Source of the DNA: a phage
Sequence record: PZ049716.1
Strand: one strand, 5' to 3'
Length of the DNA: 18,895 nt
In this document: positions 9,532-18,863 of the stretch, piece after piece
How the letters are laid out: each line of letters starts with the position of its first letter
How positions within the stretch are numbered: position 1 is the stretch's first letter
Position numbers and translations under genes: made by a program
Notes under the pieces: model-generated
What the model was told of the DNA's origin: nothing
What the model saw: only the letters and a program-made list of their open reading frames with translations
The model's database searches: none

Positions 9532-9552
9532 GTAATTTTGACGAGGCAAAAA
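9532..9552 (-). repeat. 21-bp motif copy A (plus-strand gtaattttgacgaggcaaaaa), 20/21 identical to copy B at 15483..15503
   Basis: Direct sequence comparison; both copies follow a minus-strand terminator hairpin and precede a late-gene start. Confidence 0.6.
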
Positions 9553-14348: not shown

Positions 14349-15452
14349 TTATTGCTCCTCGGCCTTGGCGGCCTTGAACTGTTCGGCGGTCAGGTTCATG
14401 CGCGAGCACACAGCCAGCTCGTCCTGAGTCAGCCCGGTTTTCTCGTCCGCCACCGGAGGCTCACCGCCAGTCTGGCTGCGGCTCAGCGCAGCAATCGGCT
14501 TCGCCTTGTCCAGGTAGGCAGTCAGCGCAGCGCGGTTGCTCTTGCCGAGGTCGCGTGCCCACTCTTCCATCGGTTTGGCCAGGCGGCCGTCTTCCAGGGC
14601 GGCGGTGATCTGGCTGTCGAGGTCCTTGTCATCACGCTCACCCAGGCGAGCGGTCAGCGCGGCGATCTCGGCTTGCATGCCCTCGATAGCCGACACCGGT
14701 ACGAACTTGGCGGGGTCAACAGAGGTAGCGGCCTTGGCCTTGAGGCCGGTGCAGGCTGCCAGCATGGCTTCGCCACCGGCCTTTTCATCCAGGCCCAGCA
14801 GCTTGCGCAGGTTGGTGGTGTGGGCGGAGAGCGCGGCGACTGCCTGCTCTTCGGTGGTGTTCTCGGCCAGGCCGAGGGCGGCGATCAGCGCCAGCAGCAA
14901 TTGGTTCACGGGGTTTTCCTCTGGGGAGTCATCGAAACAGCCGAACGACGCGGCGGCGCGCAGGCTGAGTTCCTGCATGCCGTCGATAGCCGGGGCATTG
15001 GTGAGCGCGCCCATCTGCACGTCCAGGACGTCGCCGGTGGTCGGGTGGTAAAGGAACACGGGGGAGAAATACTGGTACTCGCCCTCGGCGATGTACTGCG
15101 CGGCGCGGGCAGTCAGTTGCACCTGGGCAAACAGGCCTTCGCCCTCACGCCACTCCAGGGCCTGGTACCAACCTGCAGCTGGAGCGGGCTGGCCGTTCTC
15201 TTCCTTGAGCAGGGTCTGGTGTTCGTAGTCGACCACGCGCTTGTTCTTGCGAGCGTGGAAGCGCTCGATGACCTTGGTGGCCACTGCCTGGTTGATGTGC
15301 CAGGACGGCACCTTGATCTCGCGGCCATCTGCCGGCAGGAAATGGCCAGCCGGGGTCACCTGAACCCAGATGGTGTTGTCGGCAGCCGGCGCCCCCAGTA
15401 CGAAACTGCAGGCGGCGAGTGCAACGGCGAGAGGGAGGCGTTTTGTCTTCAT
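14349..15452 (-). CDS. Head maturation protease / scaffold protein, Mu I/Z-like
   Basis: Start trimmed to first ATG (MKTKRL...); VDYEHQTLLKEENGQPAPAAGWYQALEWREGEGLFAQVQLTARAAQYIAEGEYQYFSPVF matches the Mu gpI protease signature; C-terminal half is charged and helical, scaffold-like. Confidence 0.7.
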   Translation of the reverse strand: MKTKRLPLAVALAACSFVLGAPAADNTIWVQVTPAGHFLPADGREIKVPSWHINQAVATKVIERFHARKNKRVVDYEHQTLLKEENGQPAPAAGWYQALEWREGEGLFAQVQLTARAAQYIAEGEYQYFSPVFLYHPTTGDVLDVQMGALTNAPAIDGMQELSLRAAASFGCFDDSPEENPVNQLLLALIAALGLAENTTEEQAVAALSAHTTNLRKLLGLDEKAGGEAMLAACTGLKAKAATSVDPAKFVPVSAIEGMQAEIAALTARLGERDDKDLDSQITAALEDGRLAKPMEEWARDLGKSNRAALTAYLDKAKPIAALSRSQTGGEPPVADEKTGLTQDELAVCSRMNLTAEQFKAAKAEEQ

Positions 15453-15482: not shown

Positions 15483-15503
15483 GTAATTTTGACGGGGCAA
15501 AAA
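15483..15503 (-). repeat. 21-bp motif copy B (plus-strand gtaattttgacggggcaaaaa)
   Basis: Lies ~30 nt upstream of the protease/scaffold ATG and just downstream of the cassette terminator. Confidence 0.6.
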
Positions 15504-15529: not shown

Positions 15530-15561
15530 GCAGGAAATAAAGCCCGGCGTGAGGCCGGGCT
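15530..15561 (-). terminator. Intrinsic terminator ending the accessory cassette
   Basis: Minus-strand 8-bp GC stem (AGCCCGGC / GCCGGGCT, loop 5 nt) followed by TTATTT. Confidence 0.6.
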
Positions 15562-15569
15562 AGGGAGGG

Positions 15570-15887
15570 TCAGCGCACGCGCAGGGCGTGGTCGGCGGGG
15601 TAGTCCAGCAGGGCCAGGGTGTTGTGCAGGGCTTGATCGGCCAGCTCCTGCACTTTGTAGGCCTGCTGTTCCAGGTCGCCGGCCAGCACGTCCACCAGTT
15701 GGCACAGGTCGCTGCGCGACACATGGTCGAGCATGGCCGGGGTTTCGTCGCCTTCGGCATCCACCGGCAGCGGCACGGCCAGCAGTTGTTTCAGGGCGCT
15801 CAGGGCGCCCATGCGTTCGGCCAGGCGGCGCGCTGCAAAAGCGTTGATGGCCGCCACCTGGTCGGGGCGCAGCTCATGCAGGCTCAT
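15570..15887 (-). CDS. Acidic hypothetical protein (105 aa), no recognisable family; candidate accessory / anti-defence effector
   Basis: ORF track; ATG overlaps the stop of the Bro-N gene (ATGA at 15884-15887); about 16 Asp/Glu against 8 Lys/Arg; followed by a terminator. Confidence 0.5.
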   Translation of the reverse strand: MSLHELRPDQVAAINAFAARRLAERMGALSALKQLLAVPLPVDAEGDETPAMLDHVSRSDLCQLVDVLAGDLEQQAYKVQELADQALHNTLALLDYPADHALRVR

Positions 15888-16597
15888 TGCTCACCATCCT
15901 TGCTGCTCAGCGGCAGCAGGGCGACGGCGGCGGCCTGTTGCAGGTGCCGGCCAATGCGGTCGAGCTGGTCGGCCAGCGGCTGGTTGTGCGCCGAGTTGCA
16001 GAAGCGCTGGGCCAGGCGCTGCTGCTGCTCGATCAGCCGCGCCTGCTCGTTCTCCAGGTGCTTGGCCGCCACGGCGGCCAGCAGCTCGGGGCTGCACTGT
16101 GGGCTGCCGGCGGCGGGGCTGAACTGGTACTTGGCGTGCAGCAGCAGGTTGACCGTGGGTTTGGACAACCCCAGCTGGCGGGCGATATTGGCCTGGCTCC
16201 AGCCGCCCACGAACAACTCCAGCACCCGCCGTTCTATTTCGCGAGTGACCAGCACGCGGCCGCTGGGCGCTTTCGGTGGAGCCATAAGGGCATCGAGGAT
16301 GTCCAGCACCCACTTGCGGAACTCGGCTGCCACCGGCGTGCGGGCGAACATGCCCAGCAGGTGGGCGCCGCGCAGGGAGAATATACGGGTTTGTTGAATA
16401 CCGCCGGCAGTCTGCAGATCGACTAAGGCGGTCATGCCGTCGGTGAACTCCGCAGCATTCTTTTCGTACAGCTTCCAGATAGCGTGATCCGGCCGTGCAT
16501 ACCCCAAGGCACCTCCGATCTGGAGGCCCCTTAGCCAATGCTGGCCATTGCGGTCGATAACGTCGAACTGGGTATCGCGGAAGGTGAGCGCTTTCAT
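15884..16597 (-). CDS. Bro-N domain protein with central helix-turn-helix and C-terminal coiled coil (237 aa); putative regulator / antirepressor
   Basis: ORF track; GGAG Shine-Dalgarno 7 nt before ATG 16597; N-terminus TFRDTQFDVIDRNGQHWLRGLQIGGALGY...EF...GGIQQTRIFSLRGAHLLGMF...AAEFRKWV matches Bro-N; GWSQANIARQLGLSKPTVNLLLH is HTH-like. Confidence 0.6.
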   Translation of the reverse strand: MKALTFRDTQFDVIDRNGQHWLRGLQIGGALGYARPDHAIWKLYEKNAAEFTDGMTALVDLQTAGGIQQTRIFSLRGAHLLGMFARTPVAAEFRKWVLDILDALMAPPKAPSGRVLVTREIERRVLELFVGGWSQANIARQLGLSKPTVNLLLHAKYQFSPAAGSPQCSPELLAAVAAKHLENEQARLIEQQQRLAQRFCNSAHNQPLADQLDRIGRHLQQAAAVALLPLSSKDGEQ

Positions 16598-16605
16598 GGT
16601 GGGAC

Positions 16606-16680
16606 TCCGTAAGGTTCAGTCAATGCCTGATGGATTAGTAGCCCATCAGGTGGTCGGGACTCAACTAGGGCCTTACGGAC
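16606..16680 (-). promoter_or_regulatory. Nested inverted repeats and promoter-like elements immediately upstream of the Bro-N gene
   Basis: Outer inverted repeat ccgtaagg (16607-16614) / ccttacgg (16671-16678); inner perfect palindrome cctgatgg-9 nt-ccatcagg (16626-16650); minus-strand -35 TTGAGT (16659-16664) and -10 TACTAA (16635-16640) with 18-nt spacer; the 3' arm of the outer repeat abuts the Shine-Dalgarno sequence. Confidence 0.45.
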
Positions 16681-16730
16681 CCCTGGCGCTTCTTCCCCCG
16701 AAGGGTGTTGTATCCGCGCTCTCATCCCGA

Positions 16731-16762
16731 CCATAAAAGCAAACGCCAGCCCGAGGGCTGGC
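16731..16762 (-). terminator. Intrinsic terminator inside the G / Bro-N intergenic region
   Basis: Minus-strand GCCAGCCC-TC-GGGCTGGC stem followed by GTTTGCTTTTAT. Confidence 0.5.
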
Positions 16763-16812
16763 GGCAGGCGGCGTGGTCAGTGCCGTGGCTGCCGTAAGGT
16801 TTAGTGCCTAAA

Positions 16813-16841
16813 ACACTAGCCCAGCGTTACCACCTTGGCAA
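16813..16841 (-). promoter_or_regulatory. Sigma-70-like promoter candidate on the minus strand
   Basis: -35 TTGCCA (16836-16841), 17-nt spacer, -10 TAGTGT (16813-16818); lies ~50-70 nt upstream of the terminator at 16731-16762. Confidence 0.3.
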
Positions 16842-16860
16842 CAGCTTTTCCATTTAAGGC

Positions 16861-16960
16861 GTCGCCGAAACGGCGACACCCGGCGCGGATGCCGCCAAAG
16901 GGGTGGTCAAAATGGCGACCCCTTTTGATGACACTACATTCGTCGCCGTTTTGGCGACGA
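16861..16960. promoter_or_regulatory. Array of operator-like palindromes with GGCGAC arms
   Basis: gtcgccg-aaa-cggcgac (16861-16877), half-site ggtcaaaatggcgacc (16905-16920), tcgtcgcc-gtttt-ggcgacga (16940-16960); centre-to-centre spacing ~40 bp. Confidence 0.45.
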
Positions 16961-17167
16961 AACCCCCAAGAAGGAAGCTCGTATTTTCGCCGGTTTTCCC
17001 GGTTTTCCCAGGCTCTGGCCCAAAACTCACTCCAGGCCTGATGCAGAGCCGTGTTTATAAACGCCCAAACAGCCCCGGAAAGGGCCAGAGGCACCCGGAT
17101 ACATACAACGGCAGCCCCCTGGGGGCCTTAAAACGCTTCTACGGGCCTTTGCGGCGGTTTGCGGTTT

Positions 17168-17656
17168 TCAGCCCTGCAAACGGGCCTGCAGGTGATCGCG
17201 GGCGATGGCGATGATCTCCGCTGCGTCATCATCGGAGATACCGAGGAACGGCCGCGCCGGAATGTCGCCCCAGGGGATGGGCGCGCCGCGACGGGTTTTG
17301 CCGAAGGCGCCCTTGAGCGCGCCGAACTGATGCACCGCACCGTATACCCGATCGGTGCCCACCAGCAGGGTGGCGCCTTCGACCTGCGGGAAGATCTGCC
17401 GCACAAGATCGCCACGCCGCTGCAGGATCTTGCCAGGGTTCGGCGACTTGGTTTCCAGGTAGCGCGGGCTGAGTGACTTCCAGGTCTGGCCATCCGGCCC
17501 GCGTTGCGCGCTGAAGCGGTCGCGGGTGCTGTTGACCAGCGCCTCGCCGATGTCCAGCAGCATCGGCCTTGGGTCAGTCAGCTCGGCCAAGGCGCCGCGA
17601 ATAGCCGACAACACGGCGGCGTTGTCGAACTCCAGCTCTACCCGTGCGCCGCTCAC
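17168..17656 (-). CDS. Virion morphogenesis protein, Mu G-like (162 aa)
   Basis: ORF track (GTG start overlapping the upstream stop); LLDIGEALVNSTRDRFSAQRGPDGQTWKSLSPRYLETK...VGTDRVYGAVHQFG matches the Mu gpG signature. Confidence 0.7.
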   Translation of the reverse strand: MSGARVELEFDNAAVLSAIRGALAELTDPRPMLLDIGEALVNSTRDRFSAQRGPDGQTWKSLSPRYLETKSPNPGKILQRRGDLVRQIFPQVEGATLLVGTDRVYGAVHQFGALKGAFGKTRRGAPIPWGDIPARPFLGISDDDAAEIIAIARDHLQARLQG

Positions 17657-18177
17657 AGCTCACCCTCCAGCAGCACCAGTTGCCCGGCCTGCAGGCGGCG
17701 GCGCACAGCAGCGATATCCAGCGCCTGCTGCACGCTGTTGGCCCCGGTATCGCCGCTCACCTGGTAGCGCACGACAAGGGCCAGGTCATCGCCATACACA
17801 TACACCAGGCTGTTGCTGCCGGCATCGAGCAGCACGGCGCGCGGCCGGGCCAGTGCGGCGGGTACGCTACCGAAGCGCTCGGCGGCGACGGCACGCGTAT
17901 CGCGCGCCTTGCCGGCCAGCATGCGCAGCATAGCCACGTCGCTGATGCCGATTACCGCCGTCAGCGGCGTTACCCCGGCGCCGGCCAGGCCGGTGACCAG
18001 GTTCGGGCTGATGCTGCCCACCAGCATGCTGCGGCCGCGATCCACGCCGTCCATCACCACATCATCGAGCAGGCGGCGCCAGTCGTTGTCGATCGCCCGG
18101 CTCACAGCACCGTGCTCCAGCAGCTGCTGCGCCATGCTCGCGGCCGGCGCTGCCGGCAGGCGTTCGGTCTTGCTCAT
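17653..18177 (-). CDS. Hypothetical protein (174 aa) between the F-like and G-like genes
   Basis: Start trimmed to the first ATG (18177), which overlaps the F-like stop (ATGA); its stop overlaps the G-like GTG start; fills the gap exactly; no family recognised. Confidence 0.5.
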   Translation of the reverse strand: MSKTERLPAAPAASMAQQLLEHGAVSRAIDNDWRRLLDDVVMDGVDRGRSMLVGSISPNLVTGLAGAGVTPLTAVIGISDVAMLRMLAGKARDTRAVAAERFGSVPAALARPRAVLLDAGSNSLVYVYGDDLALVVRYQVSGDTGANSVQQALDIAAVRRRLQAGQLVLLEGEL

Positions 18178-18863
18178 GCTGAGTTGCACCTGGCGCTCCA
18201 GGGCGCTGCGACCTGGTGCATAGCCCCAGCCGGGTCGATACCTTCGGGCACCTCAACGATCTCGCCCTTGTACTCGATGCGCCGCGTCTGGCTGGCCGGC
18301 GCCTTGTCCGGGCCATCCTTGCCCAGGCGCTTGAGGTCGCGCTCGTTCAGCGCCCGCACCCGGCATTGGCAGCCCCAGCCGTTGGGCGGGTAATGGGTTT
18401 GCCACCAGGGATCATCCGCCGGGATCACCAGGCCGTGCCACGCTTCATGCTCGGGGCGCGGGGCGATCACCGCATCGCTGTGCTCGTACATCCAGTAGGG
18501 CCGCGTGGCCTTCACCTCCTGCAGCTGCTGGTAGCGGCCGGCGGCGTAGCTGGTGCGCAGGTTCGTCTCGTAGATCACCCGCGAGCGCCAGGCGCGGCCG
18601 CCATCTGGCTGCCAGCCGTAGTTGTCCAGGACGGCGGCGAAGTCCTCGCGGAACGCCTCCAGGGTGTCGCCGTTGTCCAGGGCGCTCTGCAGCACCTGCT
18701 GAATATCCGCCACCATGTCAGCGCGGTGAGCCCCGGCCACCACGAAGGCGTGGTCATGCGCGGCGCCGCGCACGGCGAAGTAATCCACGCTCGGCAGCTT
18801 GCGGCGCAGGAACTCGTTCTGCTCACGGAACGGCAGGCTGCCGTAGCTGGCGGGTTCGGCCAT
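18174..18863 (-). CDS. Head morphogenesis protein, Mu F-like / SPP1 gp7 family (229 aa)
   Basis: ORF track; GAAHDHAFVVAGA...GRAWRSRVIYETNLRTSYAAGRYQQL...RPYWMYEH...PRPEHEAWHGLV...PPNGWGCQCRV matches the Mu F domain. Confidence 0.75.
   Translation of the reverse strand: MAEPASYGSLPFREQNEFLRRKLPSVDYFAVRGAAHDHAFVVAGAHRADMVADIQQVLQSALDNGDTLEAFREDFAAVLDNYGWQPDGGRAWRSRVIYETNLRTSYAAGRYQQLQEVKATRPYWMYEHSDAVIAPRPEHEAWHGLVIPADDPWWQTHYPPNGWGCQCRVRALNERDLKRLGKDGPDKAPASQTRRIEYKGEIVEVPEGIDPAGAMHQVAAPWSARCNSA

Follow-up and report, generated by a model that had tools for sequence, protein, structure and literature searches.

What controls the two-gene insert that interrupts the late operons of a Mu-like Pseudomonas prophage, and what might its proteins do? 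In sequence record PZ049716.1 (18,895 nucleotides, the whole of which we call the window, and in whose coordinates positions are given unless another contig is named; all window genes and all window features described here lie on the minus strand), a cassette of ~1.4 kilobases (~15541–16985) sits between two head-gene operons. It carries a gene for a 237-amino-acid (aa) protein with a Bro-N and a helix-turn-helix (HTH) domain, followed by a gene for an acidic protein of 105 aa. We find that a structured RNA of 84 nucleotides (nt) lies upstream of the Bro-N/HTH gene, and that its variable loop is complementary both to the ribosome-binding site (RBS) of that gene and to a second copy of the same target in the leader. 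We think it probable that the cassette is an immI/IsrK-like, antisense-RNA-gated module of antirepressor type that moves between operon boundaries of Mu-like prophages. The complementarity makes an RNA lock on the Bro-N/HTH gene highly likely; for an antirepressor function of the protein so guarded, which its domain content suggests, we would put the chances at slightly under even.

A structured RNA of the sRNA-Xcc1 type precedes the Bro-N/HTH gene

The RNA, an apparent analogue of the c4 RNA of phage P1, occupies positions 16649–16732 and was recognized both with the Rfam model of the small RNA (sRNA) sRNA-Xcc1 (RF02221) and with a covariance model of our own. A permissive Rfam scan aligned 16644–16732, on the gene strand, with RF02221 over its full length (1–87; 50.6 bits, E 2e-8), and RNAs at the equivalent position upstream of related Bro-N genes in divergent loci reach 59–74 bits with the same model, above its gathering score. 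Our own model, R2, gives the window RNA 103 bits; with a covariance model built from this RNA, close relatives and divergent viral contigs alike show matches 50–140 nt ahead of their Bro-N genes. The computed structure comprises a closing stem, a conserved hairpin 1 (AUACAAcACCC-UUCG-GGGGAA), a variable hairpin 2 and a 3' ACC tail, which is the sRNA-Xcc1 consensus fold, with the hairpin 1 core AUACAAnACCC...GGGGAA invariant. In an alignment fitted to the model, 96% of cells are paired, 13 of 19 pairs show compensatory changes and none of 500 shuffles reaches the observed score.

An exact search for the 5' half of the RNA in representative genomes returned no match, and the models for C4, c4-a1b1 (RF03163), isrK and AaHKsRNA82 found none at E <= 10 in 16590–16860. 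Rfam matches to Esr41, SorX, HCV_SL669 and similar families were set aside, as they lie far under their cut-offs and rest on terminator hairpins. The c4 RNA is reportedly excised from its operon transcript by RNase P; the acceptor-like closing stem and RCC tail are the only hint of such an excision here, and it is by analogy with c4 that we infer RNase P processing of the window RNA. Directly after the ACC tail stands a further hairpin, CUGAUGG-N9-CCAUCAG (16637–16660), which is kept in close relatives, with compensatory changes in the metagenomic relative L004 (CAGACGG...CGUCUGG), and is absent in divergent lineages; it may be a processing or stability element.

The loop, the ribosome-binding site and the leader change together

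The antisense determinant UCCGUAAGG (16671–16679), consisting of the hairpin-2 loop plus its closing pair, is the exact complement of 16606–16614 and of 16792–16799. The first of these sites falls within target a2, CCUUACGGA (16605–16614), which overlaps the Shine-Dalgarno (SD) sequence GGAG (16605–16608), 7 nt before the ATG of the Bro-N/HTH gene. The second lies in a leader copy of the target (16792–16805; b1 ACUA plus a1 CCUUACGG, reading ACUAAACCUUACGG) that is identical to the RBS target, forms direct repeat D5 with 16607–16620 and is placed between a promoter-like site and the leader terminator.

Across relatives, loop, RBS site and leader site change in concert. Two alleles occur among close relatives, A (CCGUAAGG in the loop, CCUUACGG in the target) and B (CCGUUUGG and CCAAACGG, respectively), and a single Pseudomonas sihuiensis genome contains both, in prophages L007 (allele B) and L010 (allele A). 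The co-variation extends to five divergent lineages (L012, L017, L033, L034 and L043) and to L090, the target standing in each case next to the SD sequence and in the leader: CUCUAAA in the loop with UUUAGAG in the target (L033), CUACUUG with CAAGUAG (L043 and L090), CCUGUG with CACAGG (L034), CUAUGCG with CGCAUAG (L012), and, in L017, CCUUUGA with UCAAAGG in the leader and UCAUAGG at the RBS.

Viral contigs scanned for the conserved core, and then with the covariance model, yielded 104 RNAs, of which we used the 95 that are non-redundant. An exact complement of at least 7 nt to the loop lies within 70 nt downstream in 80% of them, compared with 10% of non-cognate pairs, and one lies within 170 nt upstream in 85%, compared with 16%. 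In these contigs the RBS site ends 6–12 nt before the start codon, the spacing is fixed at 40–65 nt, and a U-run separates the upstream target site from the RNA in 74 of the 95 loci. Divergent lineages show a second (b) contact, in which the single-stranded stretch 3' of hairpin 2 is complementary to a site 2–12 nt 5' of the first. For the window, hairpin 2 and the RBS target are paired in cis in the minimum free energy fold of the leader, and RNAduplex gives allele A −28.4 kcal/mol with its cognate site against −12.9 with the B site. Two marks of c4-type control are present, namely a loop that is complementary to, and co-varies with, the RBS of the first downstream open reading frame (ORF), and a second target copy upstream. 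On this evidence the main control element of the cassette appears to be an antisense RNA that occludes the RBS, as in P1 immI, and not an Aca-type repressor alone.

sRNA-Xcc1 and C4 RNAs occupy the same slot

Of 17 viral loci with Bro-N relatives, taken without selection, 15 have an sRNA-Xcc1 or a C4 (RF01695) RNA 50–150 nt upstream of the gene, and many of the C4-bearing loci have in addition isrK, c4-a1b1 or AaHKsRNA82 further upstream. The Pseudothauera locus L091, which encodes a 48%-identical full-length homologue of the 237-aa protein, has an RNA that is of C4 type when judged by eye against the consensus, and its loop CCUCAGA matches UCUGAGG at the SD sequence and in the leader. The two consensus RNAs are alike in outline, each with 87 nt, a closing stem, two hairpins and a 3' ACC tail; the literature that we searched yielded no link between sRNA-Xcc1 and c4.

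The genes downstream of Xcc1-type RNAs are mostly of antirepressor type. In viral contigs, 68 of 100 genes behind Xcc1-type RNAs fall into one supercluster, whose representatives have the domain architectures Bro-N, AntA+ANT, KilA-N, ORF6N+P22_AR_C, P22_AR_N+P22_AR_C, Rha+ANT or ORF6N+HTH; the remainder encode small proteins of 52–109 aa that have no assigned family. In L117, the gene that immediately follows an Xcc1-type RNA (1448–1531 of that contig) encodes an acidic protein of 79 aa, which is homologous (E 3e-10) to the 68-aa acidic protein of L091 (5743–5949), which comes after the Bro-N/HTH homologue there; small acidic proteins can therefore be directly gated cargo.

sRNA-Xcc1 was first described in Xanthomonas as a trans-acting RNA that is controlled by HrpG/HrpX and linked to virulence. 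In APSE phages it has been noted to precede an ORF6N gene and in Xanthomonas integron cassettes the symE toxin gene, with no mechanism given. Some viral contigs hold several Xcc1-type RNAs (two to four), each with its own loop and its own antirepressor-type gene downstream (L193 8455–9938; L194 1303–1386 and 13491–14148; also L140, L156, L160 and L191), an arrangement that recalls the five tandem sRNA-Xcc1 copies reported from a Xylella genomic island.

Promoter, terminated leader and upstream palindromes

Upstream of the leader target copy lies a sigma70-like promoter-like site (16813–16842) with a −35 element TTGCCA (16836–16841), a 17-nt spacer and a −10 element TAGTGT (16813–16818). A strict promoter scan missed this site; it is kept in all eight of eight relatives, and divergent loci have a near-consensus TTGACA-17-TATnnT at the equivalent position. 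The leader ends in an intrinsic terminator (16735–16763; stem 16744–16763, then UUUGCUUUU) that is conserved in relatives.

A palindrome, GTTGCC-N5-GGTAAC (16826–16842), overlaps the −35 element and is a candidate operator. It is perfect (GTTGCC-N5-GGCAAC) in L006, L010 and L011, and L090 and L091 have palindromes of different sequence at the same promoter position. Because the palindrome overlaps the −35 element, there is room for additional regulation by the HTH protein, and autoregulation at this site is possible. Further upstream, a 128-base-pair (bp) element (16856–16983) contains three palindromes GTCGCC-N5-GGCGAC (16942–16958; 16903–16919, degenerate; 16861–16877) that match in geometry the GTTGCC-N5-GGCAAC site at the −35 element. 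We dropped these as conserved operators because the element is missing from half of the relatives: it is found only in the window, L001 and L002, is absent from L006, L007, L010 and L011, and gave no match in an exact search of representative genomes. A 92-aa ORF with a GTG start (16816–17094) was likewise rejected as a gene; it has no family match and spans this non-conserved element, and is for both reasons most likely spurious.

The two cassette proteins

The 237-aa protein combines a Bro-N domain (PF02498, 1.4e-10; phrog_5060 'anti-repressor Ant', 7e-39) with an HTH of the LuxR/GerE/Sigma70_r4_2 type (3e-6) and a helical C-terminal domain, and has an isoelectric point (pI) of 9.4. Its N-terminal domain thus belongs to the Bro-N/KilA-N/ORF6N/AntA/Rha group that typifies antirepressors; the window itself contains no repressor gene. 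Among full-length homologues the C-terminal half (HTH, LLHAKYQFSPAAG motif and coiled coil) is nearly invariant, and the Bro-N half occurs in two swapped variants. The two P. sihuiensis prophages, which are related Mu-like elements of one genome (L007, LT629797.1 10457–26774; L010, LT629797.1 1940145–1956876), illustrate this: their cassettes have different Bro-N domains, with the C-terminal half and the 105-aa gene essentially identical.

The 105-aa protein (pI 4.8) is predicted to form a two-helix hairpin and found no family match in domain searches. It occurs only together with the 237-aa family, in 2 clusters among 5.8 billion non-redundant sequences. The homologous Bro-N genes of L090 and L091 are followed by other small acidic proteins (68–79 aa, pI 4.4–4.6), to which the 105-aa protein has no detectable similarity.

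Neither protein matched any chain of the PDB, by sequence or by fold, or any NCBIfam model; PADLOC gave nothing beyond a weak HTH match, and there was no match to the products of DMS3-30 or DMS3-31, two genes of phage DMS3 discussed below. The PDB presumably holds most of the solved Acr and Aca proteins. Structure prediction with fold search returned for the 105-aa protein a generic helical hairpin with no informative match, and for the 237-aa protein only matches through its LuxR-type HTH (template-modelling (TM) score about 0.17); a search with the C-terminal domain of the latter returned a single protein.

A mobile cassette at transcription-unit boundaries

The insert is bounded by the last gene of one late unit, a G-like virion morphogenesis gene (17168–17656; PF05069 Phage_tail_S, 1.5e-32; phrog_26), and the first gene of the next, a protease/scaffold gene (14349–15452; PF10123 Mu-like_Pro, 2.5e-103). 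Its two genes, for the Bro-N/HTH protein (15884–16597) and the acidic orphan protein (15570–15887), overlap by ATGA, and an intrinsic terminator (15534–15561; hairpin 15541–15561, then a T-run) closes the cassette; this 3'-end terminator is kept in L004 and L007.

The nearest reference phages are Pseudomonas Mu-like phages of the JBD25/Fc22 type, which a distant search matched at ~70% identity in the protease gene only; a near-identity search of the window against a phage collection found no match. In JBD25 the gap between the G and protease genes measures only ~210 bp, that is, the junction is empty. It is empty also in L004, a close metagenomic relative, whose 215 bp align with both ends of the window gap. 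The 5' part of the gap (16985–17167) is ancestral intergenic DNA that aligns with these empty junctions and lies outside the cassette, and its folding is not significant (z −0.34). L004 carries the two-gene cassette all the same, 80% identical, at the junction of its tail chaperone genes with its tape-measure gene. The G/protease junction holds the cassette in the window and in L001, L006, L007, L010 and L092; the carriers at this junction include relatives from the Pseudomonas sihuiensis/chengduensis/oleovorans group. Other Mu-like prophages have homologous cassettes with more distant full-length homologues: that of L090 follows gene F, and that of L091 separates Mor from the lysis genes. A promoter-like site and a terminator of its own, presence/absence polymorphism and alternative insertion sites mark the insert as an autonomous, mobile accessory cassette (a 'moron') of Mu-like prophages.

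Much of this agrees with an earlier note on the same DNA, written from the sequence alone. That note had described a self-contained insert at this junction, and its gene coordinates prove correct and the junctions of L004 and JBD25 empty at ~210 bp; its two translationally coupled genes are borne out by the ATGA overlap, and its intrinsic terminator by the hairpin and T-run. The independent regulation that it proposed fits the promoter-like site and terminator, and the comparison across related prophages that it had called for does reveal presence/absence polymorphism and alternative sites. It had also seen a regulatory region of ~570 bp with lower GC content upstream of the 237-aa gene. The composition holds (0.56–0.61, against 0.64–0.70 in the flanks), but the gap is not one regulatory region: it consists of ~180 bp of ancestral DNA, the 128-bp element, the promoter, the terminated leader and the 84-nt RNA, which had been overlooked.

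The position of the cassette is always a boundary between transcription units. At the G/protease junction, ~30 nt upstream of the protease gene, stands a late-promoter-like motif TTTTGCCCCGTCAAAATTAC (TTTTGCCnCGTCAAAATTAC; 15483–15502) that belongs to the backbone and not to the cassette, and a second copy (9532–9551) precedes the tape-measure gene, at the junction where L004 has its cassette. In all, the window has exactly two copies of the 20-nt motif TTTTGCCnCGTCAAAATTAC, where chance predicts 0; each follows a terminator and precedes the opening gene of a late unit by 30–60 nt. Relatives have the motif at both junctions, empty sites have it too, and JBD25 has it in a looser form. We take TTTTGCCnCGTCAAAATTAC to be probably a late-promoter or activator element. 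The late promoter P_I of phage Mu lies at an equivalent place. In DMS3, two small genes, DMS3-30 and DMS3-31, which we take to be acrIE3 and aca1, occupy the same junction, and a transcription-unit boundary with a late-promoter-like motif may explain why accessory genes, this pair included, build up there.

Two side observations concern the same phage group. Between the capsid and Gp36 genes, L006 (11544–11897) and L008 (4239–4592) encode a 117-aa protein with an Acb2_Tad1_hairpin domain (PF24729), presumably the domain of anti-CBASS/anti-Thoeris sponge proteins; if so, it would be an anti-defence gene at another place in these phages. And in the window the Mu F-like gene (within 17653–18863) is split into two frames (18174–18863 and 17653–18189) by a 1-nt deletion in a C-run (CCCC to CCC, 18231–18234), as judged against the intact 403-aa genes of L092, L007 and L006, which reflects either a sequencing error or a defective prophage.

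Relation to known antirepressor modules and a proposed mechanism

In phage P1, the c4 RNA represses synthesis of the antirepressor Ant (PMC8546580). In Gifsy-1, transcripts that end at the IsrK terminator act in trans on the read-through isrK-orf45-anrP mRNA, whose translation they activate; IsrK is followed by a stable RNA that arises by processing, and the prophage is induced by AnrP (PMC4825925). The layout of the window maps one to one onto such modules, with promoter, target copy, terminator, RNA, RBS target and antirepressor-type gene in the same order.

The resemblance to the immI regions of P1 and P7 (c4, a1b1/a2b2, icd, ant1/2; RF01695, RF03163) extends to the promoter, which is constitutive in P1/P7 and matched by a promoter-like site at the same slot in the window, to the upstream target copy and to the antirepressor-type cargo. 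Like c4, the window RNA is a processed-looking molecule of ~80 nt with a closing stem, two hairpins, an ACC tail and a loop complementary to the RBS of the first ORF; the allelic specificities of P1 and P7 resemble alleles A and B, and the two RNA types take the same slot in homologous Bro-N operons. Unlike c4, it is of the sRNA-Xcc1 type and has a different, highly conserved hairpin 1; unlike immI, the window has no icd-like leader ORF, its target overlaps the RBS of the Bro-N gene itself, its cargo is a Bro-N+HTH protein with a 105-aa orphan, and its host is a Mu-like transposable prophage. The Gifsy-1 locus shares the terminated leader and read-through mRNA from one promoter, and, with the switch that we propose, a silent read-through form, a processed RNA past the leader and an antirepressor that controls induction (PMC4825925). 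In contrast to Gifsy-1, the window leader is not a member of the isrK family, and an activator role for it is suggested by likeness.

With sRNA-Xcc1 elsewhere (RF02221; Xanthomonas integron cassettes, Xylella islands, APSE phages) the window RNA has in common its full-length alignment, the AUACAAnACCC...GGGGAA core, the ACC tail and a place ahead of a same-strand gene (symE in integrons, ORF6N in APSE); the papers that we searched, by contrast, call sRNA-Xcc1 trans-acting and virulence-linked, and do not state a c4-like logic of loop and RBS. A further parallel is immI of P22 (ant, arc, mnt, sar RNA), where an antisense RNA controls an antirepressor module that lies within the late region of this temperate phage. 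Proteins with P22_AR_N/C domains are among the cargo of Xcc1-type RNAs; sar, however, is a true cis-antisense RNA from the opposite strand, whereas the window RNA lies upstream on the same strand.

By these analogies, transcription would start at a host-type promoter (~16813–16841), and the first ~70 nt would carry the b1/a1 target copy. Most transcripts would stop at the intrinsic terminator (16735–16763), and those that read through would contain the 84-nt tRNA-like RNA (16649–16732), the Bro-N/HTH gene and the coupled 105-aa gene. Pairing of the hairpin-2 loop UCCGUAAGG with CCUUACGGA over the SD sequence would then block translation of the Bro-N/HTH gene and, through coupling, that of the 105-aa gene; the block would operate in cis as long as the transcript is unprocessed, and in trans after excision and accumulation of the RNA. 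Since it carries the same target sequence, the terminated leader could act as a decoy, or as an activator in the manner of IsrK. The proteins would be made in a burst on entry into a cell that is free of the RNA, or whenever the leader outnumbers the RNA, and would stay silent in an established lysogen, with immunity specificity set by the loop sequence. The output protein would most likely be a regulator of antirepressor type, with a phage repressor or promoter as its target and the acidic 105-aa protein as partner.

Weighing the alternatives

Several observations count against an RNA-gated antirepressor module. The window RNA scores 2.4 bits below the gathering score of RF02221 (53 bits) and gives no match at gathering. 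The RBS site of L017 has one mismatch; the b contact, as we read it, spans only ~4 nt in the window's family against 6–8 nt elsewhere; and simple duplex energies do not separate cognate from non-cognate pairs for allele B. Two metagenome contigs mix alleles, L001 (1230–1490) with leader B, loop A and RBS B, and L002 (610–870) with leader A, loop A and RBS B; a third contig with the same protein, L003, is consistently B, and the mixed ones arose either by natural recombination, with escape from their own RNA, or by chimeric assembly. As to the protein, 'antirepressor' is for Bro-N proteins mostly an annotation label, and to our knowledge the biology of Mu-like phages does not include antirepressors as an established element. 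The −35 palindrome together with the HTH suggests a DNA-binding regulator rather than a repressor-binding protein, and the cassette lies at the junction where DMS3 carries what we take to be acrIE3–aca1.

One alternative keeps the RNA lock and makes the 237-aa protein a direct transcription factor, whose Bro-N and HTH parts would both contact DNA and switch phage or host promoters. An HTH of LuxR/sigma70-r4 type, a basic protein (pI 9.4), the conserved palindrome at its own promoter and an ORF6N+HTH analogue that also stands behind an Xcc1-type RNA all fit; yet no target sites were identified beyond its own promoter, and relatives of the N-terminal domain are fused to classical Ant C-terminal domains, so that we consider this reading unlikely, though worth keeping in view.

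We are more doubtful of an anti-defence operon of the acr–aca kind, in which the 105-aa orphan, possibly with the Bro-N protein, would inhibit CRISPR-Cas or another defence, the HTH would be an Aca-like autorepressor and the RNA a second shut-off. The earlier note had favoured an anti-defence or host-takeover locus, and its view of the position as a known anti-CRISPR hotspot fits DMS3-30/31 (presumably acrIE3–aca1) at the same junction. As in the operons of DMS3/JBD30-type phages, there is a promoter of the cassette's own, here with its own terminator, an HTH protein and a small acidic protein, the last very narrowly distributed, with 2 clusters among 5.8 billion non-redundant sequences; three divergent HTH-bearing members have a palindrome over the −35 element, and a burst followed by silence would suit early anti-defence expression. 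But neither protein resembles PDB chains, PADLOC or NCBIfam entries, or DMS3-30 and DMS3-31 (the presumed AcrIE3 and Aca1); control is RNA-based, the gene order is reversed relative to classical acr–aca pairs, the genes under such RNAs belong to the antirepressor superfamily in 68 of 100 related modules, and the cassette also occupies junctions that are not known as acr sites. Nor is the HTH a free-standing Aca: it forms the C-terminal half of a Bro-N protein, and c4-type antisense RNAs systematically precede the genes for relatives of that protein. The phrase 'undescribed system' went too far for a variant of the immI/IsrK antirepressor module. The case for an anti-defence role is thus circumstantial, with the junction, the promoter and terminator and the acidic orphan in its favour and no homology behind it. 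We give a similarly low chance to an RNA-timed anti-defence or host-takeover operon, with a burst in the naive cell against a defence or a competitor prophage and the RNA lock thereafter; if true, a c4-like RNA would do the job that Aca proteins do in classical anti-CRISPR operons.

That the locus is a toxin–antitoxin, addiction or abortive-infection module, with the Bro-N/HTH or the 105-aa protein as toxin and the RNA as antitoxin, seems to us very unlikely. An RNA over an RBS matches the logic of RNA antitoxins, sRNA-Xcc1 precedes the symE toxin gene in Xanthomonas integron cassettes, and an over-activated IsrK locus arrests growth (PMC4825925); most cargo, however, is of antirepressor type and not of known toxins, and PADLOC gave only a weak HTH match. 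Finally, an independent trans-acting sRNA on host mRNAs, next to the Bro-N gene by chance, would suit the original description of sRNA-Xcc1 as trans-acting and HrpG/HrpX-controlled, but is scarcely credible given that, from lineage to lineage, the loop co-varies with the RBS of the gene behind it, to which it is complementary, and that the spacing is fixed at 40–65 nt.

Implications

An RNA-gated antirepressor-type cassette would place an immI-type switch in Mu-like prophages, where such modules are not textbook knowledge. sRNA-Xcc1 appears here to behave as a sister of the P1 c4 RNA, with a variable loop matched to an RBS and a leader copy that may serve as decoy; it would guard antirepressor-type genes and, in integrons, the symE toxin gene. 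This offers a testable c4-like mechanism for the whole sRNA-Xcc1 family, in Xanthomonas, Xylella and APSE, which has so far been regarded as a trans-acting virulence sRNA, and its many natural pairs of loop and target, among them the two alleles in one Pseudomonas sihuiensis genome, are candidate orthogonal RNA locks.

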